32,000 nt of DNA from an uncultured archaeon (GTDB lineage Archaea > Iainarchaeota > Iainarchaeia > Iainarchaeales > CSSED10-239): contig CAZQEL010000001.1 in the NCBI GenBank assembly GCA_964591795.1, positions 30,001 through 62,000 on the forward strand. Reading direction: 5' to 3'. Numbering within the stretch: the stretch's first letter is position 1; every line of letters starts with the position of its first letter. This document shows, piece by piece, positions 5,312-28,522 of this stretch. Made by a program: the position numbers and the translations under genes. The notes beneath the pieces are model-generated. The model did no database searches. It saw only the letters and a program-made list of their open reading frames with translations, and was not told the origin of the DNA.

Positions 5312-5404
5312 AATAATCACAAAATCTATTAATTACTAATATATAATTACTTAACAATCTTATTATAAAGATATATTTTACTTAAAAAATAAAATTTTAA
5401 GTTA

Positions 5405-6085: not shown

Positions 6086-7387
6086 TTAAAATGATAAAAA
6101 AGTAATGTTTTCAAAAGATATTTTATCTTCTTTACCTGTTTTTATATTTTTTATTGAAATAATTTTTTCTTTAATTTCATTTTCTCCTAAAAAACCAACA
6201 TAGGTAATTCCTAATTTATCTGCATACTCAATATTCTTACCAATTGATCTTTTTAAAAGATCTATTGAAACATTCATACCATTCATTCTAAGTTTTTGAA
6301 CAATTTTTATTGAATCTTTAATTGTGTCCCCTATAGGAATTACAAAAAGATCAGCAGTTGTTTTTTTATCCATTCCATCTCTTTTCTTAATAATTTCCAT
6401 AATTGGCTCAAGACCGAATGCAACACCCACAGCAGGATAACTTTTTGAATCATCTTGTAAGTATTTACTAATCATTTCATCCCATCTACCACCACCAGCA
6501 ATTGAAGAAGACATAATTTTTTTATCTTTTAAAAATACTTCAAAAATAGGCCCTGTATAATACCCTAAACCTCTAGCAAGAGAAGGTAAAAACATATATG
6601 AAACATCATAATATTCTAAATATTTGAAAAGTTCTTGTAATGATTTGATTCCTTCAGTTTCCCCAATGGTTTTACCTATAGCTTCAAGCTTTTCTTGGTT
6701 AGTTCCTGATACTAATAGTAAATTTAACAACAAATCGATTGTTTTTTCATCAAGTCCTTTTGAATAAAGCTCGTTTTTAACCCCTTCAAAGCCTGTTTTC
6801 TTAAGCTTATCAATGGTTATTATTACTGATGTTTGTATTTCTTTATTAATTTTATAAAAATCAAGAATTTCCTCTAAAAGACGCCTATCATTGATTTCAA
6901 TATTTACTTCTAAATTAAGCTCTTTAAACACAAAATCAATTAATGAAATTATCTCTGAATCTGAAGAAACTTCCTTAACTCCAATAATATCTACATCACA
7001 TTGATAAAATTCTCTATATCTTCCAGCCTTTATAGGCCCATCTCTAAAAACCGGACCTATTTGATATCTTTTAAATGGAAGTCTTATTTGTGGGTTTTCA
7101 CCAATAAATCTTGCAAGAGCAAATGTAAATTCATACCTTAATCCTAGTGATCTTTCACCTTGGTCTTTAAATCTATATATTTCAGAAATTGCATCTGAAT
7201 TTTCTCCAGCTCCAAACTTTGCTTCTAAAATTTCTAATTTTTCAACAGTTGGTGTTTCCAAAGGAGAAAAACCATAATTTTCAAATATATTTTTAATTTT
7301 AAAAATAATCTTATCTCTAAGTATCTTTTCTTCAGGTGCAAAATCTCTAAATCCTTTTGCAGTTTCAAGTATCATTTTTTCAACCAT
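6086..7387 (-). CDS. hisS: histidine--tRNA ligase (class II)
   Basis: Class II motifs are present: GFRDFAPEE near the N-terminus, motif 2 (FRDGPIKAGRYREFYQCDVDIIG), motif 3 region (GGGRWDEMI...PAVGVAFGLE) and a C-terminal anticodon-binding domain. The start was trimmed to the ATG at 7385-7387 (MVEKMILETAKGFRDF). The first 48 codons of the track ORF (6086..7531, GTG start) are tRNA-His plus spacer read as protein. Confidence 0.95.
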   Translation of the reverse strand: MVEKMILETAKGFRDFAPEEKILRDKIIFKIKNIFENYGFSPLETPTVEKLEILEAKFGAGENSDAISEIYRFKDQGERSLGLRYEFTFALARFIGENPQIRLPFKRYQIGPVFRDGPIKAGRYREFYQCDVDIIGVKEVSSDSEIISLIDFVFKELNLEVNIEINDRRLLEEILDFYKINKEIQTSVIITIDKLKKTGFEGVKNELYSKGLDEKTIDLLLNLLLVSGTNQEKLEAIGKTIGETEGIKSLQELFKYLEYYDVSYMFLPSLARGLGYYTGPIFEVFLKDKKIMSSSIAGGGRWDEMISKYLQDDSKSYPAVGVAFGLEPIMEIIKKRDGMDKKTTADLFVIPIGDTIKDSIKIVQKLRMNGMNVSIDLLKRSIGKNIEYADKLGITYVGFLGENEIKEKIISIKNIKTGKEDKISFENITFLSF

Positions 7388-7473
7388 ATTTTCTCTTTTC
7401 CTATATTTATTTAGTTTATAATAATATATAAAAACTAATGCTTTTTTTAAAAAATAATAATTTATAATTAAAG

Positions 7474-7546
7474 GGTCAAAACCGGGATTCGAACCCGGGC
7501 CAGGAGCTCCACAGGCTCCTATGCTAACCACTACACTACAATGACC
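7474..7546 (-). tRNA. tRNA-His (anticodon GUG) with genome-encoded G-1
   Basis: Reverse complement reads G-GTCATTGTAGTGTAGTGGTTAGCATAGGAGCCTGTGGAGCTCCTGGCCCGGGTTCGAATCCCGGTTTTGAC-C. Anticodon stem is GGAGC/GCTCC with loop CTGTGGA, giving GTG. T arm is CCGGG-TTCGAAT-CCCGG. The extra 5' G opposite C73 is the His identity element. The acceptor stem contains two U-U oppositions (see findings). Confidence 0.85.
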
Positions 7547-7924: not shown

Positions 7925-9190
7925 TTAAGAAGAAGGATTAACTATTCTTCCTAAAAATAAGATTTCTCCTGTTTGTTTATCTTGAATTATAAAGATAAAA
8001 GGATGATCTGCAATAAACTCAAAAACTTCTTGTTGAGATCCTGGACCTACTGATGTCGCTATCATAGTAACTACTGTTGCAGCAGCTGCTTCAGTTCCAG
8101 ATTCATCTACAGAAATAAATGATTGATGAATTACTTTAGATATCATTAATGATTCATCAAACATTTTTGAAAAATTAGCAGAATCACTAAAAGCCAAAGA
8201 CATCCCTAAAGTACTTAAATTATTTGATAATGTCATTTTATCGTCAAATTCAAATTTAGGTAATGTGATTTTAGTTAAATATATATCTTTCATTTCAGAT
8301 TTCCATTCATTCAATTTATCAATAGTTAATATTTCATCTAAAGTATCTAAATTTTCTTTTGGTAAAAGAATAAGCATTGAAAGATCATTACCCAAATAGT
8401 TAAGTTCTAACATTTTAAGATAATCATTATTTAAATAATTAAATTTAGTTTTTTTAGGTAACATTACCATTGTTTCTATTTGAACTACATTTTCAGGAGT
8501 AATTTTAAAATCTAAATCAGTAGTATCTTTTTTATTAAATTCATAAATCCATTTACCTTTAAAATAAATTGCATTAGTTAAAATTAATTTTGTATCTGAA
8601 GATAAATCCTCAAGTATATTTTTTATTCTATTGTTTGTTTGTTTAGCAATAAAATCATTAATTGTTAATCTTGATTTTTCAGTTTCATTAACAAAATCTA
8701 AATTAACTGCTTTACCACCATAATATTTTTCAACATTTTGTGAATAGTTATCTAAAAGTTTTAAATCTTTTGAAACCCACAAAGCATTTCCTGTTCTAAT
8801 TTCATAATTTTTATTTTTAGTATTTAATTTATTATATATAACAGCAGAATTAGGTCTTAAAATATTATTTTCTGGAAAATAAAATACATTTTTCATTTCC
8901 TCTGCAGTAGCTCCATTTGCACCTTCATAAGTCATTGCAAGCGCACTATAAATACTATATGGTGAAAAAAATAAATTTTCAGTATTTGTTTTACTTAAAT
9001 CAAAATATAAATCCATTGCAAATTGATTATTAGCATTAACAACTTCTTGTATTCCTTCTAAACTAAATCCAGTATCATCTGCACTAGGTGGACTTAAAGG
9101 ATCATATGGAAATACAAATAATGCAACACCTGCAGATACAATACCAACAAATAAAATAACTAATATAATTGATAACCATTTTTTACTCAT
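7925..9190 (-). CDS. serpin (serine protease inhibitor), N-terminally membrane-anchored or secreted, paralogue 1
   Basis: 421 aa. Serpin landmarks include NLFFSPYSIYSALAMTYEGANG, TNAIYFKGKW and the inhibitory hinge EGTEAAAAT-type sequence (DESGTEAAAATVV). The C-terminal motif ADHPFIFIIQDKQTGEILFLGRIVNP is also present. N-terminal hydrophobic segment is WLSIILVILFVGIVSAGVALFVF. A GAGGT Shine-Dalgarno lies upstream. Confidence 0.9.
   Translation of the reverse strand: MSKKWLSIILVILFVGIVSAGVALFVFPYDPLSPPSADDTGFSLEGIQEVVNANNQFAMDLYFDLSKTNTENLFFSPYSIYSALAMTYEGANGATAEEMKNVFYFPENNILRPNSAVIYNKLNTKNKNYEIRTGNALWVSKDLKLLDNYSQNVEKYYGGKAVNLDFVNETEKSRLTINDFIAKQTNNRIKNILEDLSSDTKLILTNAIYFKGKWIYEFNKKDTTDLDFKITPENVVQIETMVMLPKKTKFNYLNNDYLKMLELNYLGNDLSMLILLPKENLDTLDEILTIDKLNEWKSEMKDIYLTKITLPKFEFDDKMTLSNNLSTLGMSLAFSDSANFSKMFDESLMISKVIHQSFISVDESGTEAAAATVVTMIATSVGPGSQQEVFEFIADHPFIFIIQDKQTGEILFLGRIVNPSS
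8844..9007. repeat. near-identical 164-nt tract shared with 10146-10309 (serpin paralogues)
   Basis: Aligned by hand, 8844-9007 and 10146-10309 differ at one position (8867 a versus 10169 g). The rest of the two genes is clearly more diverged. Confidence 0.85.
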
Positions 9191-9220
9191 ATTTAAAAAC
9201 CTCTCATATTTTAAAAAAAA

Positions 9221-10492
9221 TTAAGAAGAAGGATTAACCATTCTTCCTAAAAATAAAATTTCATTAGTTTCATTTTCTTGAATTATGAAAATAAAAGGAT
9301 GATCTGCATTGAAAATAATATTAGCTACTGGATTAGGCATAGATTTAGCTATCATTATAACAGCAGTAGCTGCTGCAGCTTCTGTTCCTTTTTCATCAAC
9401 TGAAACAAATGCTTGGTGAATAACTTTAGATATCATTAACCTTGTATCTCCATTCATTTTTGAAAAATCAGCAGCAGAACGTGAAAATGCAGTAGGCATA
9501 CCCATATCACTCAAATTATTCTGCAAGTAATATCTAGTATCAAATTTAAATTTAGGTAAATTTATTTTAGAAACTTCTTTTTGAGTCATACTTTTTTTCC
9601 ATTCATTTAGTTTTGCATAACTTAAAACTTTTTCTAATGAACTAACATTGTCTTTAGGTAAAAGAACTAACATTGAAAGTTCATTATCTTTATATGGTAA
9701 TTCTATTATTTGAAGTAAATCATTTTCAAAATAATTAAATTTTTTATCCTCTGGAGACATAATCATAGTTGGAATTTTAATAATATTGTTAGAATTAACT
9801 TTAAAATTTAAATCCATTGTATCTTTTTTATCAAATTGATATTTCCAATCTCCTTTAAAATAAATGGCATTTGTTAAAACTAATTTTGTATCATCTGTAA
9901 GATCATTTTGTTCTAAAAGATCGTTTATTTTATTATCTGTTTGCTGAAAAATAAAATCATTAATTGTAAGTCTTGATTTTTCAAGTTCATTAATAAAATC
10001 TAAATTAACTGCTTTACCACCATAATATTTTTCAATTAAATTAAAATATTCTGGTAAAAAAGAAAATTCTTTTTGAGCCCATAAAGCATTTCCTGTTCTT
10101 AATTCATAAGATTTTTCTTTTTTATTTATTATATTATATATAGCAGCAGAATTAGGTCTTAAAATATTGTTTTCTGGAAAATAAAATACATTTTTCATTT
10201 CCTCTGCAGTAGCTCCATTTGCACCTTCATAAGTCATTGCAAGCGCACTATAAATACTATATGGTGAAAAAAATAAATTTTCAGTATTTGTTTTACTTAA
10301 ATCAAAATACATATCCATTGCAAATTGATTATTTGCATTTGAAACTTCTTGGATACCTTCTAAAGTATACCCACTATCATTTACTTCTGGTGGACTTACA
10401 GGATCATATGGAAAAACAAATAATGCAATACCTGCACTTACAATTCCAATAAATACAAAAACAAATAAAATTGACAACCATTTTTTATTCAT
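9221..10492 (-). CDS. serpin (serine protease inhibitor), N-terminally membrane-anchored or secreted, paralogue 2
   Basis: 423 aa with the same landmarks as paralogue 1. The hinge is DEKGTEAAAATAVIMIAKSMP and the C-terminal motif is ADHPFIFIIQENETNEILFLGRMVNP. A GAGGT Shine-Dalgarno lies upstream. It sits 30 nt upstream of paralogue 1 on the same strand. Confidence 0.9.
   Translation of the reverse strand: MNKKWLSILFVFVFIGIVSAGIALFVFPYDPVSPPEVNDSGYTLEGIQEVSNANNQFAMDMYFDLSKTNTENLFFSPYSIYSALAMTYEGANGATAEEMKNVFYFPENNILRPNSAAIYNIINKKEKSYELRTGNALWAQKEFSFLPEYFNLIEKYYGGKAVNLDFINELEKSRLTINDFIFQQTDNKINDLLEQNDLTDDTKLVLTNAIYFKGDWKYQFDKKDTMDLNFKVNSNNIIKIPTMIMSPEDKKFNYFENDLLQIIELPYKDNELSMLVLLPKDNVSSLEKVLSYAKLNEWKKSMTQKEVSKINLPKFKFDTRYYLQNNLSDMGMPTAFSRSAADFSKMNGDTRLMISKVIHQAFVSVDEKGTEAAAATAVIMIAKSMPNPVANIIFNADHPFIFIIQENETNEILFLGRMVNPSS
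10146..10309. repeat. near-identical 164-nt tract shared with 8844-9007
   Basis: Partner of the repeat at 8844-9007, with 163 of 164 positions identical by hand alignment. Confidence 0.85.
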
Positions 10493-10645: not shown

Positions 10646-10915
10646 TTATAATCTTCCTTTAAATTCTTTACCAACTTTGAATGAAACTGTTTTACTTGCA
10701 GAAATTTTCATAGCTTTTCCAGTTTGAGGATTTCTACCCATTCTAGCAGCTCTCTTCTTAACTTTGAAAGTACCAAAACCAACTAATTGTAATTTACCTT
10801 CTTTTTTAACAATTACTTTCATAGCTTCTAAAGTTGTATTAATAAACTCTTCTGCTTTTGCTTTTGAGAAATCTGTTTTTTTAACAACAGCTTCAACTAA
10901 TGTTTTTTTATTCAT
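10646..10915 (-). CDS. HU-family (bacterial-type histone-like) DNA-binding protein
   Basis: 89 aa. MNKKTLVEAV...LQLVGFGTFKVKKRAARMGRNPQTGKAMKISASKTVSFKVGK aligns along its full length with my memory of E. coli HU, including the GFGTF...R.GRNPQTG arm. Confidence 0.92.
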   Translation of the reverse strand: MNKKTLVEAVVKKTDFSKAKAEEFINTTLEAMKVIVKKEGKLQLVGFGTFKVKKRAARMGRNPQTGKAMKISASKTVSFKVGKEFKGRL

Positions 10916-10928: not shown

Positions 10929-11042
10929 TTTTTTCTATAAAAAATATAGATTATTAAATTATTATATATAGTAAAGCTTTTTAAATAGATGTGTTTTAAT
11001 CCCTATTTATAGGGCATCTAAGGAGTATTTATGGAAAAATAG

Positions 11043-11116
11043 CAGATCTATTGGGATTTGAACCCAAGTTTTAGGCTCCGCAAGCCTACGTACTATCCAG
11101 GCTATACTATAGATCT
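11043..11116 (-). tRNA. tRNA-Arg (anticodon GCG)
   Basis: Reverse complement reads AGATCTATAGTATAGCCTGGATAGTACGTAGGCTTGCGGAGCCTAAAACTTGGGTTCAAATCCCAATAGATCTG. The acceptor AGATCTA/TAGATCT is perfect. Anticodon stem is TAGGC/GCCTA with loop TTGCGGA, giving GCG. T arm is TTGGG-TTCAAAT-CCCAA. Discriminator is G and no CCA is encoded. A T5 run follows the 3' end. Confidence 0.9.
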
Positions 11117-11126
11117 TTTAAAATAA

Positions 11127-11480
11127 TTATTTTTTTCCGCCTTTACGAGAAATTGTAGAGGTTCCCCAAAAGAAAACAGATACAAGACCAAAGCCTAAAA
11201 ATAAATATCCCATCATAATAGCACTAGTTAAAAATAAATATTTATAAACTAAAAAATAAGCTAAAATACCAGTTACAATAAAAGTAAGAATATTTTTTTC
11301 TCCAAAAGCTTGAGAGGCATTTTCATAAATAAAGAAAACAATTAAAGCCATAATAATATATTTTACCCAAGGAAAAATCACCATAAATCCAGGTACAATT
11401 AATATAGCTACAACTGAAACAATTAATATTTTTACAAGTAATGGAACTGCTCCAAAAACGCCACCTTTATTATTAAGCAT
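11127..11480 (-). CDS. small polytopic membrane protein (about 4 predicted TM helices), last gene of the giant-protein cluster
   Basis: 117 aa, almost entirely hydrophobic helices with a basic C-terminal tail (RKGGKK). The ATG lies 3 nt after the stop of the preceding gene, suggesting translational coupling. An AGGT motif lies upstream. No family recognised. Confidence 0.7.
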   Translation of the reverse strand: MLNNKGGVFGAVPLLVKILIVSVVAILIVPGFMVIFPWVKYIIMALIVFFIYENASQAFGEKNILTFIVTGILAYFLVYKYLFLTSAIMMGYLFLGFGLVSVFFWGTSTISRKGGKK

Positions 11481-11483
11481 AAA

Positions 11484-11855
11484 TTATCTACCTGGAGGTT
11501 TCCCACCCATTCTTTTAACTAAATGATTTCTAGCTGCATGTTCTGTTGCTCCTGGAGTACCATGAGTATCCATTTTTTTACCCATCATTTCTTCAGCTGA
11601 ACCACCAGCACTAATAAAGAAGAAATCAACAAATATTCCAGCTACACCCACTGACAATAAAATATATAATATATATCCAGTTTTAAAAATAGGCCAAAAT
11701 AAAAAGATCATAACAATAACACCAATACTAATCATTACTAATGCAAGTGTATTATGAGTAACTCTTCTTTTGATAAAAGCTATGATTGTAAGTATTAAAA
11801 ATAATTGTAAGATAAAATCAAAATCTTGAAAAAAATTTAAATATATATTTAACAT
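11484..11855 (-). CDS. small membrane protein (about 3 TM helices) with a polar basic C-terminal tail
   Basis: 123 aa. It has hydrophobic helices followed by the tail GGSAEEMMGKKMDTHGTPGATEHAARNHLVKRMGGKPPGR. An AGGA motif lies upstream of the ATG. It starts 24 nt downstream of the 2111-aa gene. No family recognised. Confidence 0.7.
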   Translation of the reverse strand: MLNIYLNFFQDFDFILQLFLILTIIAFIKRRVTHNTLALVMISIGVIVMIFLFWPIFKTGYILYILLSVGVAGIFVDFFFISAGGSAEEMMGKKMDTHGTPGATEHAARNHLVKRMGGKPPGR

Positions 11856-11879: not shown

Positions 11880-14800
11880 TTAAGTATTATTTATAACTGG
11901 ACAAATATAATCACTAGGAATATTAGAAATTATAATGTCAAGTTCATTTTGTGTAAAATTAACTTCACTATCAACCCATTTAATATATGTTCTTTGAGGT
12001 GATTTATGAATACATGCTTTTTCATTTTTTACAAATTCAAAAATTCCTTTAATTGTTTTTAAATTATTCAAATTATTTCCTAAATTATGATCCGAATTTT
12101 TAAACGTAATATCTTCAACATTACCAATTAAATTTGATTTAGAAAATATTTTTGTAAAATCACTATTAGATAACTGAGAAGTTTTAAATTTAAATTGACT
12201 TAAGTCTAAATCAGTAGGTATATATAACATAGTAGTTAAACTTATATTATTATCTGTAACTGTACTTGTGTCTAATATATATCTACCAATATCATCACTA
12301 GAATATAAATTATCAATAAATACAATATCATTACTAGTCCATTTTAAAAAGTTAGAACCAATTAATGGATCTAAAGAATTGTCACCACTATGTAATAAAT
12401 TATAAGATAACTTACTATTAAGTAAACATGCAGCATATGAATATAATGGAATTGGATATGATAAACTATATGTCATTTGAAGTTGTCCATCATTAAATTT
12501 TTTTAAATCTAATATATATCCTTCTGAATCAATAATATTATTTAAATTACCTAGACTATTATAATTATTTATTGCTAAAGTATTAATTGGGTTATTAACT
12601 AAAGAATAATTTAAATCTACAATTGAATCAGATCTTATTTGAATTATAGGGTCATAATTATTTGTTTGTATACCATATCCATCTCTAGTTCCATTTTGAT
12701 TTAATCTTCCGTCAAATGGCATATAATGAAAAGCACTAAGTTCTGATGAACTTAAGTTTTTTACAAATAATAATTGAATATCAATCTTAGTATCATCCAT
12801 AGAATTTTGATAATAATCATTATCATTACCATAAACATCAACCTTATATATTCCAGGCATAAATGTTTTTTGAGTACTATTATTATCAAAAGTAATTTTT
12901 AAGTCACCATCATTAACTGAACTTTCTGTAAATAAATTTGAATTATTAGGTTTAGAAAATTTTGAAAATTGACTAAAAGCATCATTATCTCTATAATCTA
13001 TAAAATCTTTTAAAAGATTGTCAGAAATTCCATCATTCATTAATTTAATATAAAATGGACCTTCAACACAATTTTGAATTTTATAAAATATAGATATTAG
13101 CATCTGTAAAGAATCACAAGCATATTTTTCATACATTTCAGAAACATTATTACCAATACATTTATTAGTCCAACCTCCTTCTTCATATTCTTCACCCCAA
13201 TTAAAAAACACTTTAGGCAAATACTCTAACCCAGTTTTACAAGAATCGGTTTGATCTTGACAATAACCTAAAATAAACATATCAGTGCCATCATTTTGAC
13301 CACCAACACCTATACAATAATCAAAATCAATGGTGCTCTGAGTTATTTCTGGGTCTAATTTAAAAATGGTATAATCAGCAAGAACATTCTTATTAAAGTC
13401 AGAATTAAGAATATCTAAAACTTTAAAGTTAAATAAAGTATTTTCAATTCCTGTTGTTTCATCTAAGGATAAATCACTAAAATTAGAATTATATGTTACA
13501 GAACGTGTTATATCTGTAGTTATTAAAGATAACTCTGAAGATAAATTATTAACTGATAAATTTTCATCAATAGGATTTAAGGATACTGGAGTTAAAAGTT
13601 TAACTTTATATAAATTTAAATTATTATTAAAACTATATATTTTAGATTGACTACATTCATCTTGAGAAATACAAAATATTTCTACTGAATTCCAAGTAAT
13701 ATGTGATATATTAACTATTGATTCACTATTATAAGCCTTAACATTAAATGTTTGTGTAAAATTTACATCATTACCATTAAGTAAAATATTAAATGTTAAA
13801 ACAATTGCTGAGTTGTTTGTAGGATAGTCACCAGTATATGCATCATTAAACTTAAAATTAATTGGAATTAACACTGATGACAAAATATTTTGATTATTTA
13901 AATTAATAGAATCATTAAATACACTATTATCAATAAACAAAGGTAAACTATCTACTATAATATTTTTTAAAACAGCATTAACATCTGAAGATAAATTATA
14001 ATCTATAACAATACTAGGGTTGATATCTTTTATAATTTCAATATCATAAACTTCATTTTCATCAGAATATCTAACACCTTTATTTGGATTAGGATAACTA
14101 GCACTATAATTTATAGAACCTAAATTTTGAACAACAATATTTGAGTTTACATCAAGTAACAAAGTAGTATCATCATTAAACTTTAAATGATTTGTATAAC
14201 TTTCATTAATATCAACACCAGTACTAATATCATCATTTAAAACTAAACTAGTCAAAACAAGAGTTTGAACTTGATTTATATCCTTAGGTAAATCATTAAC
14301 AGTAAAAAGATTAGATTTAATTTGATTTACATCAAATACACTAGATGCTCCTGTGAATGTAAGATCATTTAAATTTGCAACAACAGTTGATTGCTTTAAA
14401 ATATTATAATTTTCAAGATTAACATCTCCAAAAATAATTGAATCATTTAATCTATAAAAATATGTAGAAAGATTAATATTATTTTCTAAAATTGAATATC
14501 CAGATTCAATAGTTTTTGATCTTACAACAGTATTGTTTATAAAACCAGCTTCTGGAGTAAAAATAAAATAAAAATTAATTTTTTTAGACATATCTTCAAC
14601 AGGAAGATAAATATTTTGATCAGTTAACAATCCTTGTGCATCCGTATCACCTAAAGAGATTGCTTCTCCACCAGTTACTTGATATTTAATTAAAATATTT
14701 TCAATTGGTGCATTATAATTATCAACAACTTTAAATGAAACATTATTTTGTCCAATAAATATATCATTATTTAAATTACTAGTAATTTCAAACACAAAAT

Positions 14801-17800
14801 TAACATCTGAATAATATGAATATAATGAAGTATTAATTATAGGGAAATTGTTTAAAATATCTGTTGATAGGACAGGTTCTGAATATGCTGTATTTTCAAA
14901 AAAACCAGTTGGCTTAAATATTGTATAAGTATTAATGTTATAACCTCTGTTTGCATCTATTAAATTTATTGAATAATTATAATCATTAATAACTGTTTGA
15001 TAATAAACAATAGGATCCATATTACCATCAGGATCTCCTGAATCTAATAAATAACCATAGCTTGCATATTCTAAATTATTATTTGTATAACTTGAAGTTT
15101 GATCAATACTACCTTGTCTTAATAAATTTTTCAAATATAAATAATAAATATCATATTTATAATTTGTTTCAATAGATACTGAATAACCATCTACATATGG
15201 AGTTAGTACAGTACCATTAAAATCTTTAATTTTCTTTGAATATATATAATCTAAATTATTAAATGGAATTTGATATTTATTTGTTTTTGAATAGAAATAA
15301 CCATCAGGATAAATTGGAACTTCATTCCAAGAGATAGATTGAATTGGATCAAAATTATATATTTCACCATATTTTGTAGCCAAAGATCTATAACTTAGTT
15401 TGTAAAAATCAGTGGGTGCAACAGGAGCCTCTTTAAATTTAATATTTGCAGAAAATTCTAAAACATTTGGAGAAAGATCCATTACATTAACTTCAAACCA
15501 TTTATATTTATTTCCATTATAATCATAACCTTGATCAGTAGTATAATTTTGATTAAATAAAGTTATATTAAAATCAGGAATATGCTCTCCAGAAAATTTA
15601 TATCCTCTATCAATTTGAATTTCATCTGATAATATATCATCAGAAACAAAATAAATATAATCGTCATCTATAAATATTTCATTTCCTGCTCTTAAGTGTA
15701 AATATTTAATTTCAGAATCACTAAAGCATGAAGTGTATTTAAATTTAAGTCTATATTCATCATCAAGCCCATTATTATTATAATCAATATTGGTTACAAT
15801 TCTAGTTCCTGTTTTATTATATAAGCCAGTTAATTCAAGTTTAGAATCTGAACATGCAACTAAACTAGTTAAAGAAACTTCTTTAAAAATTTCTTGATCA
15901 GGTACAAGTGTTAAAACTTCTGTTTGATAAGTTGTATATCCTTGTGTACTAATAACAGCATAAACTCTATTTACTCCACCAATAAAATAATATTGAATAT
16001 TTGAATCAACATCAACAGACACATAATCAATTACTGAATTATGCTCAACATCATAGAAATTAATATCAAAATTTATATTTGGAGTTACTTTTAAATTTAA
16101 TATTTTTGGAATATCTTGTAAATTCACAAATAATGGTAAAAAAGCATTAACATCAAGCTCTTCAGTACTTGAAGTTCCTTCTCTATCAACAATACCATGT
16201 ACAGCATAAGCATAATAGTTCTTATGAGCCCTCTGTAGTTCAAAATTAACATCACCAAATTGATTAGTAAATTTAGAAACTGGGTTTGTAAGTACAAAAT
16301 TATTATCAACTTCCCTATAAAGATAAACTCTTGCGTTTGAAATATTTTGAATATTATCTTTTACATTAACACCAATTTTTCCAGAATTCAGTTCTGATGA
16401 AAATTCTAAAGGTATAATTATATTTCTATCTAAAGAAGTTACTAAAACTGGATCTGGTTGATTATAACCATTAATTTCAGTATTTATTATTCTAACTCTA
16501 TAATCATAAAAATTAATTACATTAAAAGAATAATAATTTGTATCTTCTGCTATGTATTCAGTAAATACATAACTTTCGTTTGTATCTTTTAATTTTGATT
16601 CAAGAGTAATGTCTCCAAAAACTGGTTCACTAGTATTTGCATCTTTTAAAGTCACAGAAATATAACCAGTAGTACCTAAAATACAAATTCCATCGCTATT
16701 TATATTTAAGAAAGGTTTTAAATGTTCATTATTACAATCAATAACCCCAGCTACACAAAAGTTAGAATACTTAGGTAAAGTACAATCAAAGTTAATTAAA
16801 TCATCTCTTGTAAATAAAACAAAAGAAGTATTAATAGTTTCTTCTTTAAAAACTGTTAAAGGTCCTTTTTTAGGATATGTTAAATATCCTTCTTTTGTAA
16901 CAGTTAAAAGATATTGTTTAGGATCAAGAGAAAATTCACCAAGTCCATAAATGTCAGTTTGTTTATTATCAAGAGGTAAAATAAAATTTGATTGTGAATA
17001 ATTATAAACAGTTACATCAGAACCTAAAAGAGCATCCCCAGAGATATTTTTCACACTAAAACCTAATTTACCAATATCTGAAGTGATTCTAGTTAAAACA
17101 ACTTTATTGTTAGAACCAATTACTTTATTTGTAATTGATGAAAATTTATTTGAAGTTACTGACACTCTTAAACGTCCACATGCAGCAGGAGTTTTAACTG
17201 TAATTCTACCATTAGCTATAAGTGTATTTTTTGGAGTAGGTATTTTTTCATTATTTGTACATGAAAATACAATATTTAATGTTGTATTTAAAATTAAAAT
17301 ATCATTATTTTCAACAAACATAATTTCTCTTTCTTCTTCTTCACCAACTGGTAAAAGAGGGGAATCAAGATCAATTAAAAGAGTTACAGTTTGTCTCAAA
17401 CTATTTTTACTAAGTTTAAATGAATGATTTAAAGTAGTATAATGTTCTTTAGATACAATTAAATTAACATTTTGTTTTTTAGATTTTAAATCTTTAAATA
17501 TTGCTTCTCCAAACACATTTGTAGTTAAAAATGAAATGTTTTCATCATTAATTTGGAAAGTTACTAATGCTCCATTTAAAGGAACACCAGCAGGATCATA
17601 AACATCAACACCTATAGTCCAAGATTTTGAAAAAGATAAAGTACCTGATAAAATTAAATATAATAATAATGCTAAAATTAATAAAAATAAAATAAAACTA
17701 GGAAATACTTTATCAATACGATCTGTTAGTTTATTAACTGGTATAACTTTACTAATTCCATCAATCATTTTATAATAATTATCCTCAAAAAAGAAATAAC

Positions 17801-18215
17801 CTTTTTTAAAAAAATTACCTGTCTTTTTAAAAAAACCAACTTTATTAACATTACTTAAATTCTTTTTAATTTCAGTTTTTGGTTTTTCTTCTTTAACATT
17901 TAGTTTATTTGAAGAACTAGTTTTATTAACAAGTTCTTTTTTTAAATTATTTTTAGCAGAATTTGTACTATTAATTGATTTTGACAATTCACTTAAAACA
18001 TACTCTTTTGTATTAGCTAAAGATGCAACTTTTTTTAATGGAAGTTTATTATTTTTAATAATTTTTAAAACAAGATAACCTACGTTATCATTATACCCTT
18101 GTAACTTTATTGTTTCTTTAATTTCTTTTTCAGTAAAATTCATTGTTTTGTCTGATAGTAGACTATAAAGCTTTTCTGCTTCGATTTTATCTTGAGATTT
18201 TTTAAACAATGACAT
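11880..18215 (-). CDS. giant surface protein (2111 aa): cytoplasmic Lys-rich N-terminus, one TM anchor, beta-sandwich repeat stalk, conserved Cys-containing C-terminal module
   Basis: Uninterrupted 6.3-kb ORF. The TM segment FPSFILFLLILALLLYLILSGTL is at about aa 171-192. There are several carboxypeptidase-regulatory/transthyretin-like units, for example GVDVYDPAGVPLNGALVTFQ...NVFGEAIFKDL and VKNISGDALLGSDVTVYN...DIYGLGEFSL...TKEGY. N-x-S/T sequons are abundant. The C-terminal ~480 aa is homologous to the C-termini of the 2505-aa and 973-aa proteins. Confidence 0.9.
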   Translation of the reverse strand: MSLFKKSQDKIEAEKLYSLLSDKTMNFTEKEIKETIKLQGYNDNVGYLVLKIIKNNKLPLKKVASLANTKEYVLSELSKSINSTNSAKNNLKKELVNKTSSSNKLNVKEEKPKTEIKKNLSNVNKVGFFKKTGNFFKKGYFFFEDNYYKMIDGISKVIPVNKLTDRIDKVFPSFILFLLILALLLYLILSGTLSFSKSWTIGVDVYDPAGVPLNGALVTFQINDENISFLTTNVFGEAIFKDLKSKKQNVNLIVSKEHYTTLNHSFKLSKNSLRQTVTLLIDLDSPLLPVGEEEEREIMFVENNDILILNTTLNIVFSCTNNEKIPTPKNTLIANGRITVKTPAACGRLRVSVTSNKFSSITNKVIGSNNKVVLTRITSDIGKLGFSVKNISGDALLGSDVTVYNYSQSNFILPLDNKQTDIYGLGEFSLDPKQYLLTVTKEGYLTYPKKGPLTVFKEETINTSFVLFTRDDLINFDCTLPKYSNFCVAGVIDCNNEHLKPFLNINSDGICILGTTGYISVTLKDANTSEPVFGDITLESKLKDTNESYVFTEYIAEDTNYYSFNVINFYDYRVRIINTEINGYNQPDPVLVTSLDRNIIIPLEFSSELNSGKIGVNVKDNIQNISNARVYLYREVDNNFVLTNPVSKFTNQFGDVNFELQRAHKNYYAYAVHGIVDREGTSSTEELDVNAFLPLFVNLQDIPKILNLKVTPNINFDINFYDVEHNSVIDYVSVDVDSNIQYYFIGGVNRVYAVISTQGYTTYQTEVLTLVPDQEIFKEVSLTSLVACSDSKLELTGLYNKTGTRIVTNIDYNNNGLDDEYRLKFKYTSCFSDSEIKYLHLRAGNEIFIDDDYIYFVSDDILSDEIQIDRGYKFSGEHIPDFNITLFNQNYTTDQGYDYNGNKYKWFEVNVMDLSPNVLEFSANIKFKEAPVAPTDFYKLSYRSLATKYGEIYNFDPIQSISWNEVPIYPDGYFYSKTNKYQIPFNNLDYIYSKKIKDFNGTVLTPYVDGYSVSIETNYKYDIYYLYLKNLLRQGSIDQTSSYTNNNLEYASYGYLLDSGDPDGNMDPIVYYQTVINDYNYSINLIDANRGYNINTYTIFKPTGFFENTAYSEPVLSTDILNNFPIINTSLYSYYSDVNFVFEITSNLNNDIFIGQNNVSFKVVDNYNAPIENILIKYQVTGGEAISLGDTDAQGLLTDQNIYLPVEDMSKKINFYFIFTPEAGFINNTVVRSKTIESGYSILENNINLSTYFYRLNDSIIFGDVNLENYNILKQSTVVANLNDLTFTGASSVFDVNQIKSNLFTVNDLPKDINQVQTLVLTSLVLNDDISTGVDINESYTNHLKFNDDTTLLLDVNSNIVVQNLGSINYSASYPNPNKGVRYSDENEVYDIEIIKDINPSIVIDYNLSSDVNAVLKNIIVDSLPLFIDNSVFNDSINLNNQNILSSVLIPINFKFNDAYTGDYPTNNSAIVLTFNILLNGNDVNFTQTFNVKAYNSESIVNISHITWNSVEIFCISQDECSQSKIYSFNNNLNLYKVKLLTPVSLNPIDENLSVNNLSSELSLITTDITRSVTYNSNFSDLSLDETTGIENTLFNFKVLDILNSDFNKNVLADYTIFKLDPEITQSTIDFDYCIGVGGQNDGTDMFILGYCQDQTDSCKTGLEYLPKVFFNWGEEYEEGGWTNKCIGNNVSEMYEKYACDSLQMLISIFYKIQNCVEGPFYIKLMNDGISDNLLKDFIDYRDNDAFSQFSKFSKPNNSNLFTESSVNDGDLKITFDNNSTQKTFMPGIYKVDVYGNDNDYYQNSMDDTKIDIQLLFVKNLSSSELSAFHYMPFDGRLNQNGTRDGYGIQTNNYDPIIQIRSDSIVDLNYSLVNNPINTLAINNYNSLGNLNNIIDSEGYILDLKKFNDGQLQMTYSLSYPIPLYSYAACLLNSKLSYNLLHSGDNSLDPLIGSNFLKWTSNDIVFIDNLYSSDDIGRYILDTSTVTDNNISLTTMLYIPTDLDLSQFKFKTSQLSNSDFTKIFSKSNLIGNVEDITFKNSDHNLGNNLNNLKTIKGIFEFVKNEKACIHKSPQRTYIKWVDSEVNFTQNELDIIISNIPSDYICPVINNT

Positions 18216-18238: not shown

Positions 18239-20527
18239 TTATTTAAATATTGGAGTAAATGGAAAATCAAAACTTTTATTTCCAGTATCAGAAGTAATTG
18301 TTCCAACTAATCTATAATTTTGATAATAACAATAAATATCTTTTTCACTAAGATTCATTAAAGGATCATAATACCATTTTAAATTTGCAGGTTCTATTTT
18401 ATATTCATAAATTCCAAGTTTAGGATTTAACTCACCTATAATTATAAATTTATTAGTATACACCGGAAGTTCTTTTTTTAAAAAAGGATTATAATTTATA
18501 AATTTATTAAAATTAATATTATTTTTAGCATAATAAATATTTAAATCATTTGCATTAATTATACCTTCATTATTTGAATAAAGAGAATATGTTTTAGAAA
18601 ACTTAAGCTCAGTTGAAACTGGCATTATTTCATCAGTTAAATCATAATAATCACACAAAGAACATTCTTCATTCAAAGAAAATACACTAGGTATACTTTG
18701 AGAAATAAATGAACTAAAATCTTCTTTATTTGCAGAATTAATATTTATTTTTCCAGTATTATAATCGAAATTAGAATTTGGATTTTTTATATAACATCCA
18801 GAATTAATATTTATAGCTCTATTAGTTGTTGATATAATGGAATTATTATCTTCAGTTAAAGTTGAAATGGTTGAAACTTTTGATGGAAGATAACTACCAT
18901 TTTCTAAAACATTAATTTTTAAGTCAGAAGTATTTGCAGACACATTTTTTTTACTATTTAATATTAATTGTAACTTTTTAGATTTATTAATTAAGTAATC
19001 AATAAAAATATTTTGTGTATAACCAGGAATGCCGTCTACTCCATTATTTCCAACAACACCTTTTAAACCAGCTTTATTAGCTTCTAAATTTAAATTAAAA
19101 ATATTTGTGTTTTTTAAAATATCTACTTTGAAATTAGAATTATAACTTCCACCATTACCACCATTACCAACTTCACCAACCTCGTAATGATTATTTTTAG
19201 AACCACCATTATTTCCTTTACCAGTGAACGCATTAAAATTAAAAATACCATTATTATTTATTTGACTAAATTCATATTGTGGATTAATACAATCAAAACC
19301 ATCAGAACTCCATCCTACTTGACAAAAAAATATAGAACCACCAGCACCACCATCTCCACCTTTTGCATAATCACTAGCTCTACCACCATCAAAACCAGTG
19401 TTAGCACCCTTACCACCATTTCCTGCTAAAAGATTTACATTAAAATTATTATTATTTAATATTTTATTTATATAAAAAATAATATTTCCACCAGCACCAC
19501 CAAAACCACCAGGTCCAGGATGATGAGACCAGTACACAGTACAAGAAGTTCTTCCAGCATAAGATCCATCACCACCAAAACCACCATTTCCTGCAATTAA
19601 ATTTAAATCGAAATTCCCATTATTATCTAAATTATCTAAAATAAAAAATATATTTCCTGCAGGATTTGCATCAGATCCTTTTTGTCCATTACACATATAT
19701 GGAACTTGACCATTTTGACTATTTTGAGATTTTAAAGTTAAATCTAGCACACCATTATTTATAAGTGTATTTCCATTAAAATAAATACTTCCACTATATG
19801 GTGTATAAGGTAAATTTAATTCAGCACAAAAAGTTTGAGGTATATTCATATTAAAATTAAGTTTTGAATTTTTAAAAACATTTAATTGTTTAAATTTAAA
19901 AGTAATGTGATCATGAATATAATCATCAAAACCACTAGAACAAACAAATCTTGTTTTTGAAACCATATTAATTAAAGAAGTACCAGATATATTTACAATA
20001 GGAACATCCAAATCAAAAGTTGCAGAACCTAACTTATTATTATTATTCACAAAAATATCAATATCATGATTATTTGTATTTAAAGTATCAACTCCTGAAA
20101 GAGTAATATCTTTTGTATTATTTTTCATTTCAAAATTTAAATCAACATTTAAAACTAAATTTATTTTTTGATTAGTACAAGAAGATTGTTTAGTGAAAAC
20201 CAAATCAGAATAATAAAATATTTTTGATGGAGAAGGTATGTAAGATGTAATTGCTTGTTCAATACAGTCTCTATATTGCTCATAGGTTTCATAATAATTA
20301 CCAATTATATAATTAGTTTTACAAACAGATTCTGCATCTATAAATGCTGAAGTCTTATCAGTAGAATTAAAAAATGTAAAATAACACTCATCAGCAGTAG
20401 TACAACCTAAATCTACTTTAGTTAATTCAAATGGAGTATTTATAGAACATACTTCAGAAAAAACATATGATTGTATAAATAATAAAAAAACTATTAAAGT
20501 AATTGTTATTATTATTTTTTTAATCAT
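18239..20527 (-). CDS. secreted Cys- and Gly-rich repeat protein (762 aa), predicted beta-helix-like
   Basis: The signal peptide is MIKKIIITITLIVFLLFIQSYVFS. The central region has 4-5 degenerate ~45-55 aa units of the form GG(N/S)I(F/I)F...NN(G/N)xF(D/N)(L/V/F)N(L/A)xxG(N/K)GG... Examples are NNGNFDLNLIAGNGGFGGDG, NNNNFNVNLLAGNGGKGANTG, NNGIFNFNAFTGKGNNGG and NTNIFNLNLEANKAGLKG. Confidence 0.85.
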   Translation of the reverse strand: MIKKIIITITLIVFLLFIQSYVFSEVCSINTPFELTKVDLGCTTADECYFTFFNSTDKTSAFIDAESVCKTNYIIGNYYETYEQYRDCIEQAITSYIPSPSKIFYYSDLVFTKQSSCTNQKINLVLNVDLNFEMKNNTKDITLSGVDTLNTNNHDIDIFVNNNNKLGSATFDLDVPIVNISGTSLINMVSKTRFVCSSGFDDYIHDHITFKFKQLNVFKNSKLNFNMNIPQTFCAELNLPYTPYSGSIYFNGNTLINNGVLDLTLKSQNSQNGQVPYMCNGQKGSDANPAGNIFFILDNLDNNGNFDLNLIAGNGGFGGDGSYAGRTSCTVYWSHHPGPGGFGGAGGNIIFYINKILNNNNFNVNLLAGNGGKGANTGFDGGRASDYAKGGDGGAGGSIFFCQVGWSSDGFDCINPQYEFSQINNNGIFNFNAFTGKGNNGGSKNNHYEVGEVGNGGNGGSYNSNFKVDILKNTNIFNLNLEANKAGLKGVVGNNGVDGIPGYTQNIFIDYLINKSKKLQLILNSKKNVSANTSDLKINVLENGSYLPSKVSTISTLTEDNNSIISTTNRAININSGCYIKNPNSNFDYNTGKININSANKEDFSSFISQSIPSVFSLNEECSLCDYYDLTDEIMPVSTELKFSKTYSLYSNNEGIINANDLNIYYAKNNINFNKFINYNPFLKKELPVYTNKFIIIGELNPKLGIYEYKIEPANLKWYYDPLMNLSEKDIYCYYQNYRLVGTITSDTGNKSFDFPFTPIFK

Positions 20528-20556: not shown

Positions 20557-20931
20557 TTAAGATAATTTAAATAAAACATTAATGTTTTCATCAGAATATT
20601 CTATAGTTTGAAATTTAATAAAAAATTTGTGTAAATTATTATTTTGTTTAATTTTACTTGGAACTAGTATTTTAAAAATAACTAAGTTATTATTAAGCAC
20701 ACTAACATTTAAATCATAAATATCAGTAAAAACTGAATTATTAAATGTTTGAAATTTACCATTTGAAAAATTAGAAGAGTCTATTAAATTTAAAGGTATA
20801 CCATCATCTCCTTTTATAACCCCAAACACAAAAGGATTTACATATATTTCATCATCAAAACTATAACTAGCAGCAACTACAAATGAATAAAAAATTATTA
20901 TTGCAAAAAATAAATATAGAAATCTCTTCAT
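20557..20931 (-). CDS. small secreted protein (124 aa) inside the giant-protein cluster
   Basis: The N-terminal signal-like segment is MKRFLYLFFAIIIFYSFVVAASYS and the rest looks beta-rich. It is flanked at 29 and 71 nt by cluster genes on the same strand. No family recognised. Confidence 0.65.
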   Translation of the reverse strand: MKRFLYLFFAIIIFYSFVVAASYSFDDEIYVNPFVFGVIKGDDGIPLNLIDSSNFSNGKFQTFNNSVFTDIYDLNVSVLNNNLVIFKILVPSKIKQNNNLHKFFIKFQTIEYSDENINVLFKLS

Positions 20932-21002: not shown

Positions 21003-24000
21003 TTAACTACATTTTAAAGCATCACGTTCAGCTATAAATTCTTCAGGATAAATTTCAGCAGGGTTATAGAAAAACTCAGAAGAAGAACCATCTGTTGAAT
21101 TTAGAACACAAATCTGATTTTCTGCAATTAAATCAAACACACTCTTTATAGAATTAATACTAGAAACTGCAGTTTGATATCCTAATGAAACATTTGGACT
21201 AAAGTCAGTTCCATTTAATGAAAATTTAACACCAACATCTTGATCTGACTTATTCTCAAGAGTATATGTTTCTTTTTCAGGAGCATAGAAAATAGTTCTT
21301 AAATAAATTTCACCTGTTTTAATAACTTGTGGCCAATCTAAAATATAGGATGATTGAGGACCATTAAGTGATGCATATCTATCATAGTAAGCCATGTTAA
21401 ATATACTATTTCCTGAAAAGTCACAGCCAGAACCAACACCAGTCCATCTTAAAAGAGAAGATGAGTCTGTAAGTGTATTATCTGACTTATCTTTCAACCT
21501 ATAAAACACATTTAATGGATTAGTATTATTTTTTGTAACTTCCATTAAAATTGGCACAGCTTCACTTTTGCTTAAAATTAAATCAATATTATTTGCATTA
21601 TATTTAACACTTAAAATATTACCTCTAGTTTCAAGAGAAGAATTAATTCTATAAAAATCACTTGAATTAGTAATATTTATATTTCTTAATGCATTTGAAC
21701 CATTATCTAAATCTGATTTTACATTATCTCCATCAATATTAATTATATCTCCAGTATAACTTACACCATATCCTTGTCTATTATAACCTGAATTTGTTTG
21801 ACCAACAAATCCATTGAATGGTATTCTATAAAATACACTATCTGTTTCTGGTGATTGTAAAAATCTAAATGTTACATAAGTATTTAAATCTACTTGATCA
21901 GCAACATCTGTAAATCTCCAACTACTATCATTAAATAAAAAATCAATTTTAATTTTATATTTACCAGGACTTGTTAGATTCACATTATTTTTTTCGCTTG
22001 AATATTGTTTTATAAAATATAAATTATTCTTAAAAAGTTCAGATAAATAACCATTACTAAATACTTCTGGTGAAGACATAAAAGTATAAATTCCTGTTCC
22101 AGAACCATCTTCTTTAGATGCTAAACCACCATATGCAACATCAAAATCATTTATAAAATTTTGATTATAGTTATCTGTTATTAAATACGCGTCAAACTCT
22201 AAAAGTTTTTTAAAATCTATAATATCCTGTTGACTCCAACCATTTCCATTAACATTATCAGGATACATATTTTTATTAAACCATAAATCAAGATAACTAA
22301 TTCCATTATAATTAGCTGTAGTTGAAGGAACCTTACAATCTGTTACTGGTGCTTCATCATATATATCTAAAGACACTATTGATTCAAATTTATTATTTTG
22401 CATATCAACAGATTCACCAGTAAGATTAATATTTAAAGATAAATCATCACCAATTATTGGTGAATTTGAACTTTCAGTAAATTCTAAAACTATTTCTGAA
22501 AAAGTATCATCTTCAGAAATATTTAAAGTTACAGGTATTAAATTTAAAGCTTCAGTAAAACCAACTAAATCTCCATCAGCATTTCTATAATAAGCAGCTG
22601 TAGGATATTCATTATTTAATTTAGCAACTATATTTCCAATTTTTATACTTCCAGATCTATTGTCTAAATAAATTTTAGAAATAAATTTATTTTCTGCAGT
22701 ACTTAATTCAACAGAATCAATACCAACTTTAGATACTGAAACATTATTATCAGCATTAATAGGTTCTGCATTTTTAATGTAATAAAAACCATTTAAACTT
22801 TGAATTACTTGTTCTTGAGGACTTAAAGGATATAATACTGTTCTTTGTGATATGAATTCTTCAGCTTTATTTATTCTGTTTAAAACAACTTGAGTTAATT
22901 GAGTTGAATCACAATATTTTTCAGAACATCTATTAATATCTTGAACTGACCAATCCCAATCTAATAATACATTTGGAACTGCACCAGAACCAGTTTTACC
23001 AGTTTTACCAGTATCTGTAACACAATCTTGAACTACCAAATTATAATTTTGTGTTTCTTCTGGTTTAGTAATAAAAAATCCAAATCTATAGTTTCCAATC
23101 TTTTCAGAATTTGCAAATGCAGGATCTTGTATTTCAACTGAATCTTCAAGTGTTGGATTAAATTCATAGTTTTTAAAATAATATTTCTTTGAATCATTAT
23201 TAATGTGACTATATATGTTATCAGTAAAACTAAATTGTAATGGTTTTATTCCAGATTGCTCTGGCCATAATGTTTCATTAACTTTACAAGTATAAAACAT
23301 TTCAGTTTCAAGTTGTATTCTATTTCTAGTTGGTTTTGCACCATAACATTTAATTGATTGAGATAAAACTCCATCTTCAATTGTTGGATTAAATGAATTA
23401 TCACAATTTCTATTTTTTATTATTTGAGAATAATAATCTTCAATACTTGAATTAGGATTATTACATAAAACATAATCTGTTAAAGATAAATCAGCGTCTT
23501 TTGTAAGTCTATCTTTAATTTTATTATAAATTTTATCTGAATCTTGTGTTCTTGTAATTAAATCATTATAAGTATAATATCTAGCACCAGTAATATCAAA
23601 AATATTTAAATAAGAAGATTCATCGGATACATCATCTACAGTGATTATTTTTAAAAATTCACCATTAGAAAGTGTATACTTTTGAGGAACATCTAAATAT
23701 TTATTATTTAAAACTGGATATGCAAATTCATTTTTCCAAGAAGTTGCTGCCCAAGAAACTAAAACAATCACAGCTAAAGTAATCCAACCATAAACAGGAA
23801 TAGCAGCTAAAACTGCAGCAAATCCAACAGATCCAGCTGCAGTAGCACTAGCAACTGCAATTTCAAGCGCTGCAGCAGTAGCAATACTTAAACCAACCGC
23901 AGTAACAGTTGCTGCAGCTAAAACAGTTATACCAATTGCAGCAGCAACAGGCATAGCACCTTCATCAGTAGTACCCATAAATTCTAAATTTTCTAAGGAT

Positions 24001-28511: not shown

Positions 28512-28515
28512 AAAA

Positions 28516-28522
28516 ATCACCC
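28516..28522 (-). promoter_or_regulatory. Shine-Dalgarno site (GGGTGAT) of the 2505-aa gene
   Basis: The transcribed strand reads GGGTGAT-TTTT-ATG. This matches the archaeal or bacterial anti-SD complement GGAGGTGATC. Confidence 0.6.

Follow-up and report, generated by a model that had tools for sequence, protein, structure and literature searches.

The window analysed here is a stretch of 32,000 nt from the genome of an uncultured archaeon of the Iainarchaeota (GenBank assembly GCA_964591795.1, contig CAZQEL010000001.1, positions 30,001 to 62,000 of the forward strand). Its G+C content is about 25%, and every long open reading frame (ORF) lies on the minus strand. The window contains genes for three large proteins, referred to below as A (2111 aa), B (2505 aa) and C (973 aa), that end in a common Cys-containing module. 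An earlier note, made from the sequence alone, had proposed that this module is homologous in the three proteins, that it could not be placed in a known domain family, and that it forms a functional head at the membrane-distal end of long stalks. The genes, modules and inserts concerned are given below. Each module is taken to start at its first conserved Cys and to extend through the final residue of the protein, and the boundaries so defined fall within 16-68 nt of the coordinates in the earlier note.

28534-31455, minus strand: ORF of protein C, 973 aa
28537-30543, minus strand: module of C, aa 305-973, with insert (AlphaFold2 confidence of about 90 from residue ~305 on; independent profile)
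29800-30315, minus strand: insert in the C module, about aa 381-552, with a predicted eight-stranded β-sandwich at aa ~398-522 (DSSP of the model)
21003-28520, minus strand: ORF of protein B, 2505 aa
21006-23024, minus strand: module of B, aa 1833-2505, with insert (BLASTP against C; independent profile)
22200-22865, minus strand: insert in the B module, about aa 1886-2107, absent from A (alignment)
11880-18215, minus strand: ORF of protein A, 2111 aa
11883-13262, minus strand: minimal module of A, aa 1652-2111, without insert, made up of an N-terminal Cys block (13068-13262) and a core (matches to the hidden Markov model)

Two approaches, BLASTP and an independent profile, agree that the module is common to the three proteins. 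BLASTP aligned the C-termini of B and C with an E value of 8e-40 (29% identity over 432 aa), a second high-scoring segment pair (2e-07) in this comparison being the N-terminal Cys block, and it aligned A with C at 1e-10 and A with B at 1e-06, so that the C-termini align significantly in every pairing (1e-06 to 8e-40). The independent profile was a hidden Markov model (HMM) built from 132 metagenomic members after the window proteins and anything closely related to them had been left out. Its scores were 465 bits for C, 459 for B and 95 for A, whereas shuffling these C-termini 600 times gave no score above 5.9 bits. All seven sequence blocks and the conserved Cys on which the earlier note had built its proposal were present and in register in MAFFT alignments, and a trimmed MAFFT alignment bore out its claim that A lacks an insert of about 200 aa carried by B and C. 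In a DNA repeat scan, the repeats found in the module DNA reflected only the weak paralogy of B and C.

The alignments also revealed features that the earlier note had missed. A second near-invariant Cys lies 2-9 residues before the C-terminus (C2105 in A, C2504 in B and C970 in C), and the family has eight conserved Cys. Furthermore, about 110 residues directly upstream of the module are homologous between C-type proteins and the giant proteins (hhalign probability 95%, E 3.5e-8), so that the unit conserved at the C-terminus extends somewhat beyond the module as first delimited. The regions in question, both recognized with hhalign, are the following.

30550-30906, minus strand: pre-module region of C, aa 184-302
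23031-23354, minus strand: pre-module region of B, aa ~1723-1830, corresponding to aa 184-302 of C

The metagenomic profile search that the earlier note had suggested placed the module in a large family. When 1.84 billion cluster representatives were scanned exhaustively with HMMER, 627 proteins matched at E<=1e-3, 321 of them at E<=1e-30; this exhaustive HMM search was needed, as a word-indexed homologue search had found only two relatives. The module ended no more than about 40 residues from the C-terminus in all of the 150 matches listed, and it was C-terminal in every genomic locus where the reading frame is complete at its 3′ end. Its carriers are N-anchored giants of 2000-3250 aa or secreted proteins of about 1000 aa, shorter matches being contig fragments, and its own length varies from 450 to 770 aa across the family. 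A scan for the sequence pattern in 185,579 species, each represented by one genome, turned up 26 loci, and all 26 were from archaeal metagenome-assembled genomes (MAGs); the labelled loci belonged to Diapherotrites, Iainarchaeum and Forterrea, and the others were named just 'archaeon'. Ten sampled members carried the NCBI names 'hypothetical protein' or 'carboxypeptidase regulatory-like domain-containing protein', and came mostly from Diapherotrites, with one MAG labelled Micrarchaeota.

The occurrence of several proteins with the same C-terminus in one cluster is not confined to this window. Two module genes were found within the ~20 kb fetched at 12 of the 26 loci, and tandem paralogues that end alike are therefore the rule rather than a peculiarity of the window. 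Among paralogues, only the module and the N-terminal anchor are conserved. In orthologue pairs, the identity of the module was 47-51% for A, against 51-57% for the stalk, and 56% for B, against 56% for the stalk. Protein C has an identical copy in the Logan assembly of run SRR8862237. The best explanation is that the module is a lineage-specific globular domain, lying outside the cell, with which a family of giant surface proteins ends in DPANN archaea of the Iainarchaeota/Diapherotrites type.

Module anatomy and conservation were read from a 142-member alignment. The N-terminal Cys block has the consensus C....G..G.TG....P+v.fNW.W......CD..N..Y.YCDATQF and leads into a long helix; the Cys, Asp and Gln of its YCD(A/S)TQ motif are 100% conserved in the 142 members. 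A variable slot, which is empty in A-type modules, begins at a conserved C-P (Cys d) in most members and ends at Cys e. The near-invariant motifs in the first part of the core are F.AYL..DGYS.DF..DF..YY, PG.Y.V and DSPFYY.PFDG.VG....RQGYG, the last of which forms a long loop to which the models assign no regular secondary structure. The motifs in the second part are RG.LL, SPS.ATPV, W.G.G.C.DF.G, YG..W, G.V.L.T.FYTP and F.LV.....CV...G...F.WNP.

The presence of conserved cysteines, already remarked upon in the earlier note, extends in the family alignment to eight positions (a-h). All eight are found in 122 of the 142 members, and the total number of Cys is even in 131. This even parity points to disulfide pairing, and strongly suggests that the module is held together by about four disulfides. 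The patterns in which Cys are lost together, d with e at the base of the insert and f with h, leaving b-c and a-g, give weak hints that the pairs may be d-e, f-h, b-c and a-g. At aa 1897 of B (~22830-22832, minus strand), Cys d of the C-P motif, a position that is 95% conserved, is a Tyr, which leaves the B module with an odd number of Cys (7); the residue is a Cys in a near-identical metagenomic variant, P0001.

Structure prediction gave confident models of the module. AlphaFold2 modelled the whole of protein C from a 48-sequence alignment with a predicted local distance difference test (pLDDT) score of ~90 from residue ~305 to the end, the first 300 residues being poor. From a 35-sequence alignment, the minimal A module was modelled with a mean pLDDT of 84.6 and a predicted TM (pTM) score of 0.85, and is confidently predicted to be a single compact globule of mixed α/β structure. 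A Foldseek search of the C model against the PDB returned only β-sandwich matches of ~125 columns, the best of which was the CARDB domain 3idu of Pyrococcus PF1109 (E 1.1e-3, probability 1.0, TMt 0.55, ~128 columns); the others were Ig-like domains of glycoside hydrolase family 2 (GH2) enzymes. These matches most likely fall on the insert (C aa ~398-522, eight strands), and the ~200-aa insert of B and C is thus probably a CARDB/Ig-like β-sandwich. The likeness to CARDB covers only about 125 of the ~670 residues, and a Pfam scan of A, B, C and 28 diverse members gave no CARDB match at the level of sequence. Since the insert is absent from A, the CARDB-like part is an accessory rather than the module itself. 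There are strong grounds for a fixed insertion slot, flanked by two conserved Cys, which is empty in A and probably filled by an Ig/CARDB-like β-sandwich in B and C.

For the module itself, searches against known families and folds returned nothing, in agreement with the earlier note. Pfam, NCBIfam and PHROGs gave no match on the module of A, B or C at E<=0.1; the Pfam scan of the 28 diverse members produced just one stray match, to DUF7490 in a single member (E 0.0047); and two family profiles compared with PDB sequences at E<=10 yielded 0 matches and 1 noise match. Foldseek found no fold match for the confident model of the minimal A module, the best scores being E 0.11 (probability 0.15, TM 0.09) against the PDB and E 0.05 against the viral models of BFVD. 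Neither by HMM nor by structure, then, did the module map cleanly onto a described domain in these family, PDB and BFVD searches. Judging from the models, we infer that no solved structure corresponds to the core module, which is a probable new protein fold. Full-text searches of the literature, whose coverage stopped short of subscription-only papers, found no description of the module, the family or the fold.

A number of known types of surface protein and C-terminal element were considered for these proteins and rejected. Adhesins with repeats-in-toxin (RTX) that are exported by a type 1 secretion system (T1SS) have C-terminal GGxGxDxUx nonapeptide repeats, a T1SS signal and an N-terminal retention module. 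A fibrillar adhesin of this kind was rejected because there was no HemolysinCabind or related Pfam match, the C-terminus is a Cys-rich module and the organism is archaeal. Targets of diversity-generating retroelements have a pair of template and variable repeats (TR/VR) with differences at adenines, a reverse transcriptase encoded nearby and the fold of a C-type lectin, whereas here there was no TR/VR repeat with the module DNA, no reverse transcriptase among the window ORFs and no match to a C-type-lectin fold. Sorting and anchoring elements at the C-terminus are short (25-100 aa), PGF-CTERM being a terminal hydrophobic helix with a basic tail. The module, at 450-770 aa, had no NCBIfam match and no hydrophobic tail, and was not accepted as a signal of this type, be it PGF-CTERM/archaeosortase, a C-terminal transmembrane (TM) anchor or the C-terminal domain of type 9 secretion.

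The placement of the module at the membrane-distal end of long stalks held only in part. It fits A, where a TM anchor is followed by ~1450 aa without a further hydrophobic segment, but C has only ~270 aa before its module, and B has a hydrophobic stretch 240 aa upstream. As such a stretch lies 130-260 aa before the module in 53 of the 95 N-anchored giants of the family, the module is not simply the end of a rod. Upstream of the modules, the stalks showed weak to moderate Pfam matches to CarboxypepD_reg, Big_1 and SpaA (prealbumin-like), which is typical of β-sandwich surface stalks. The segments that bear on topology are the following.

31228-31455, minus strand: Sec-type signal peptide of C, aa 1-31, and Gly-rich hydrophobic motif, aa 58-76 (motif at 31228-31284)
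28332-28427, minus strand: N-terminal TM anchor of B, aa 32-63 (Kyte-Doolittle scan)
23739-23960, minus strand: internal Ala/Gly-rich hydrophobic stretch of B, 74 aa, aa 1521-1594, 240 aa before the module (Kyte-Doolittle scan)
17622-17720, minus strand: N-terminal TM anchor of A, aa 166-198, motif IDKvFPSFiLFL

The anchors of A and B consist of a conserved IDK.(F/I)PSF.LFL motif, which recurs in distant loci, followed by a TM helix. Both are preceded by Lys/Arg-rich sequence, which points to an N-in orientation; A has a Lys-rich cytoplasmic N-terminal extension of ~165 aa. C and its relatives of ~1000 aa have classical Sec-type signal peptides, and 25-70 residues past these the C-type proteins carry the Gly-rich hydrophobic motif LVG.sP..HG...GA.SGF.TY, with an invariant-looking His. 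No hydrophobic segment was found inside the module in 139 modules. The lack of such a segment, the disulfide signature, the nested CARDB-like domain, the orientation of the anchors and the signal peptides strongly suggest that the module lies outside the cell. B has the look of a stalk protein onto which a C-like unit has been fused. The hydrophobic segments could form hairpins within the membrane of the cell itself, lie buried as helices in an oligomer, or enter a different membrane.

The remaining features of the window are listed from high to low coordinates, the direction in which the gene order runs from a partial ORF through C, B, the 124-aa and 762-aa proteins and A to the 123-aa and 117-aa proteins and then from tRNA-Arg onward.

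31503-31949, minus strand: partial ORF, Cys-rich, the C-terminal end of an ORF possibly extending past the window
20557-20931, minus strand: secreted 124-aa protein
18239-20527, minus strand: secreted Gly-rich repeat protein, 762 aa
18239-20931, minus strand: these two secreted proteins together, between B and A (tblastn synteny in related loci L001, L002, L003, L024 and L011)
11127-11855, minus strand: tm123 and tm117, two small paralogous multi-TM proteins of 123 and 117 aa, directly downstream of A
11042-11116: tRNA-Arg
10646-10915, minus strand: HU-type protein
7925-10492, minus strand: two serpins
6086-7545, minus strand: histidyl-tRNA synthetase (HisRS) and tRNA-His
4373-5320: methyltransferase
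1624-4305: alanyl-tRNA synthetase
467-1600: phospholipase D-like (PLD-like) protein
286-360: tRNA-Pro

The organization of the cluster is conserved. Apart from the serpins, which are missing there, the gene order is the same in the complete Candidatus Forterrea multitransposorum genome (CP045477.1) and in a MAG of Candidatus Iainarchaeum (JBBISB010000001.1), and gene-by-gene tblastn synteny indicated that the order C-B-p124-Gly-rich-A-tm123-tm117 is kept across genera. The tm123/tm117 pair directly follows the last module-bearing gene in the window and in seven related loci. A is 51% identical to its Forterrea counterpart, whereas the flanking tm123, tm117 and HU proteins are 83-93% identical; against Forterrea and Iainarchaeum together, tm123 and tm117 show 83-85% identity and the giants ~50%. 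The only recurring neighbours of the module genes are the tm123/tm117 pair, the Gly-rich protein and the 124-aa protein, and none of them is annotated. No family match was found for tm123 or tm117, every relative of which is annotated as hypothetical, and there was no Pfam or NCBIfam match for the 762-aa and 124-aa secreted proteins. The 762-aa protein is built of repeated units of the GNGG.GG.G type, with 90-nt DNA repeats at 19405-19797. The partial ORF at 31503-31949 had no match to the module profile and no tblastn match in the fetched loci, and the two large proteins upstream in Iainarchaeum contain stalk-type domains only.

Several observations concern the genes on the other side of tRNA-Arg. 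The serpin genes (7925-10492, minus strand) are tandem duplicates, with stretches up to 92% identical in DNA and an N-terminal hydrophobic segment in each. Their absence from the syntenic position in Forterrea and Iainarchaeum indicates that the pair is a lineage-specific insertion beside the surface-protein cluster. The HU/IHF DNA-binding protein (10646-10915, minus strand) is of the bacterial type (Pfam Bac_DNA_binding, E 4.6e-29) in an archaeal genome, and is 93% identical to the Forterrea copy. The gene for tRNA-His (7473-7545, minus strand) lies directly upstream of the HisRS gene (6086-7531, minus strand) and overlaps its longest possible GTG start, and the real HisRS start is therefore probably further downstream.

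Our data are in keeping with a reading, to our mind the most economical and with a probability of roughly 45%, where the module is a head that binds a ligand or a host, has a single conserved site and carries an insertion slot that varies. The giants would be anchored in the archaeon's membrane by the N-terminal helix and would extend a β-rich stalk of CarboxypepD_reg, Big_1 and SpaA-like domains, at the end of which the module would act as the business end and bind a ligand on a partner cell or surface. The invariant loop motifs are rich in Asp, Arg, Asn, Tyr and Trp, and their invariance across all paralogues suggests one common ligand site; YCD..Q, L..DG.S.DF..DF, PG.Y and PFDG...R.GYG, together with several aromatics, would form this site, the ligand of which might be a glycan or a metal. 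The insertion slot varies between paralogues and lineages, which suggests that the insert would add specificity, and the side-by-side paralogues with the same head would probably act together on the cell surface.

Several points weigh against this binding-head reading. The module evolves about as fast as the stalk in orthologue pairs, and does not stand out as the constrained part. The invariant polar residues common to all paralogues would also fit an enzyme. Moreover, C has no stalk and the B-type hydrophobic stretch comes just before the module, so that the module may sit near the membrane rather than at a distal tip. Lastly, the binding itself, whether to a host, a partner or a ligand, is something that we infer.

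Of the other explanations, which are taken here in falling order of likelihood, the foremost is still an unlikely one: that the module is an assembly or docking domain, through which the giants and the C-type protein would be joined to each other, to their own envelope or to tm123/tm117 in a multi-subunit surface structure, the ligand thus being 'self'. The conservation among paralogues of the module and the N-terminal anchor alone speaks for this explanation, as do the tandem paralogues in many lineages, the gene order kept from C through to tm117 across genera, the tm123/tm117 pair being far more conserved than the giants, and a strict C-terminal placement that is typical of assembly or sorting elements. 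However, 460-700 aa with four disulfides and a variable slot would be large and elaborate for mere docking, and the module has no coiled-coil or other known oligomerisation signature. Somewhat less likely again is a new hydrolase, lyase or transferase, delivered by the stalk, that would act on the partner envelope (S-layer glycan, pseudomurein or lipid). Symbionts among the DPANN archaea have to get through the envelope of the host, and polar residues that could serve such an activity are invariant in the 142 members (Asp and Gln of YCD..Q, two of the Asp in L..DG.S.DF..DF, Arg and Tyr of R.GYG, and an Asn, an Asp and a Tyr). Yet the module has no sequence or fold likeness to any solved enzyme, there is no conserved His, Ser or Glu among the columns of at least 80% conservation, all of the conserved Cys are accounted for as probable disulfide partners, and the Pfam scan of 28 members, the stray DUF7490 hit apart, matched no family on the module.

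The hydrophobic segments invite explanations in which a second membrane is involved. It is improbable, in our view, that the module, the ~110-aa pre-module domain and the Gly/Ala-rich segment constitute a new archaeal cell-cell bridging unit. The N-terminus of the giant would anchor it in the symbiont, while at the far end a disulfide-stapled head of new fold would recognize the host and the segment would enter the host membrane. We regard as a shade more improbable a membrane-inserting device on the analogy of viral fusion proteins or toxin translocation domains, in which the Gly/Ala-rich segment would enter the partner membrane and the module would be the receptor-binding or trigger domain. 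The stretch is widespread in the giants (53/95), the LVG.sP..HG...GA.SGF.TY motif follows a cleavable-looking signal peptide in C-type proteins, and the B segment has no flanking clusters of positive charge; as the disulfides put the module outside, it is also unlikely that the segment simply crosses the membrane of its own cell once. The argument is nevertheless a compositional one only, A-type giants do not have the segment, the data are explained just as well by a hairpin of two helices in the membrane of the cell itself, and the Foldseek searches gave no likeness to any fusogen. Finally, we rejected a thioester adhesion domain, a very improbable reading in which the Cys and Gln of YCD(A/S)TQ would be bonded internally, like the CGEQ of C3/alpha-2-macroglobulin (A2M) or the Cys-Gln of Gram-positive thioester domains (TEDs). 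Complete conservation of the Cys, Asp and Gln across the 142 members and the surface-protein context had made it worth considering. The rejection was based on Cys parity and the lack of a TED fold: a thioester Cys would be left without a disulfide partner, whereas the even count in 131 of 142 members implies a disulfide for each conserved Cys, and Foldseek found no TED fold. In addition, no member has lost the motif Cys or the Cys that precedes it by 5-15 residues, and these two may therefore be partners in one disulfide; there was no Pfam TED or A2M match; and the spacing is i/i+4 rather than i/i+3.

Giant surface proteins have a precedent close to the organism analysed here. Candidatus Forterrea multitransposorum encodes five large (>1,800 aa), clustered and membrane-anchored proteins with a proposed role in cell-cell interaction; the cluster takes up about 5% of the genome, and the archaeon is predicted to depend on other cells (Probst & Banfield 2018, PMC5905446). 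The window genes are orthologous to those of the Forterrea cluster and in the same order, and A and B have N-terminal TM anchors, so that the window holds a cluster of the same type. The passages of that paper found by keyword deal with the size, membrane anchoring and clustering of the proteins, and no description of a shared C-terminal module, a family or a structure was found in them (PMC5905446). What is already known is therefore the existence of giant membrane-anchored surface proteins in Forterrea, and what is new is the head domain, which is probably structurally novel.

Likenesses also exist to more distant systems. Bacterial fibrillar adhesins of the RTX type (LapA, MpIBP and FrhA), as far as abstracts and general accounts describe them, are likewise giants with a β-sandwich stalk and a non-repetitive globular far end, and an extra domain can emerge from a 'split' host domain, as the insert does from its slot in the module. 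The window giants differ from them in being anchored in the opposite way, by an N-terminal TM helix in an archaeal membrane, in lacking RTX repeats and a T1SS signal, and in having a module whose fold does not match any known ligand-binding domain. The SPEARE proteins of Nanohaloarchaeum antarcticus, which Hamm et al. are said to have described in 2019, reportedly carry recognizable domains of the protease, adhesion and nuclease kinds, and a part in host contact has been proposed for them. They resemble the window proteins as very large surface proteins of a host-dependent DPANN archaeon, and the difference is that the window module has no recognizable domain. Members of the module family with a phylum label belonged to Diapherotrites/Iainarchaeota, with one from Micrarchaeota, in searches that were not aimed specifically at Nanohaloarchaeota.

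DPANN archaea are thought to live attached to other cells. To the best of our knowledge, very few of the molecules through which they make contact have been identified, least of all in the Iainarchaeota/Diapherotrites, of which we know no cultured member. The module and the membrane anchor are the only part of these surface systems to be conserved across all paralogues and hundreds of metagenomic relatives, and the module profile represents a searchable marker for such systems. The minimal construct from A, with 460 residues and a confident model, is suitable for expression and for binding or activity screens, and the insertion slot may encode specificity. If the module is a host-recognition element, it could help to predict host range and to pull down hosts from enrichment cultures; if it is part of a bridging unit, it would be the first molecular handle on how DPANN cells of the Iainarchaeota type attach to their hosts or open a connection with them.

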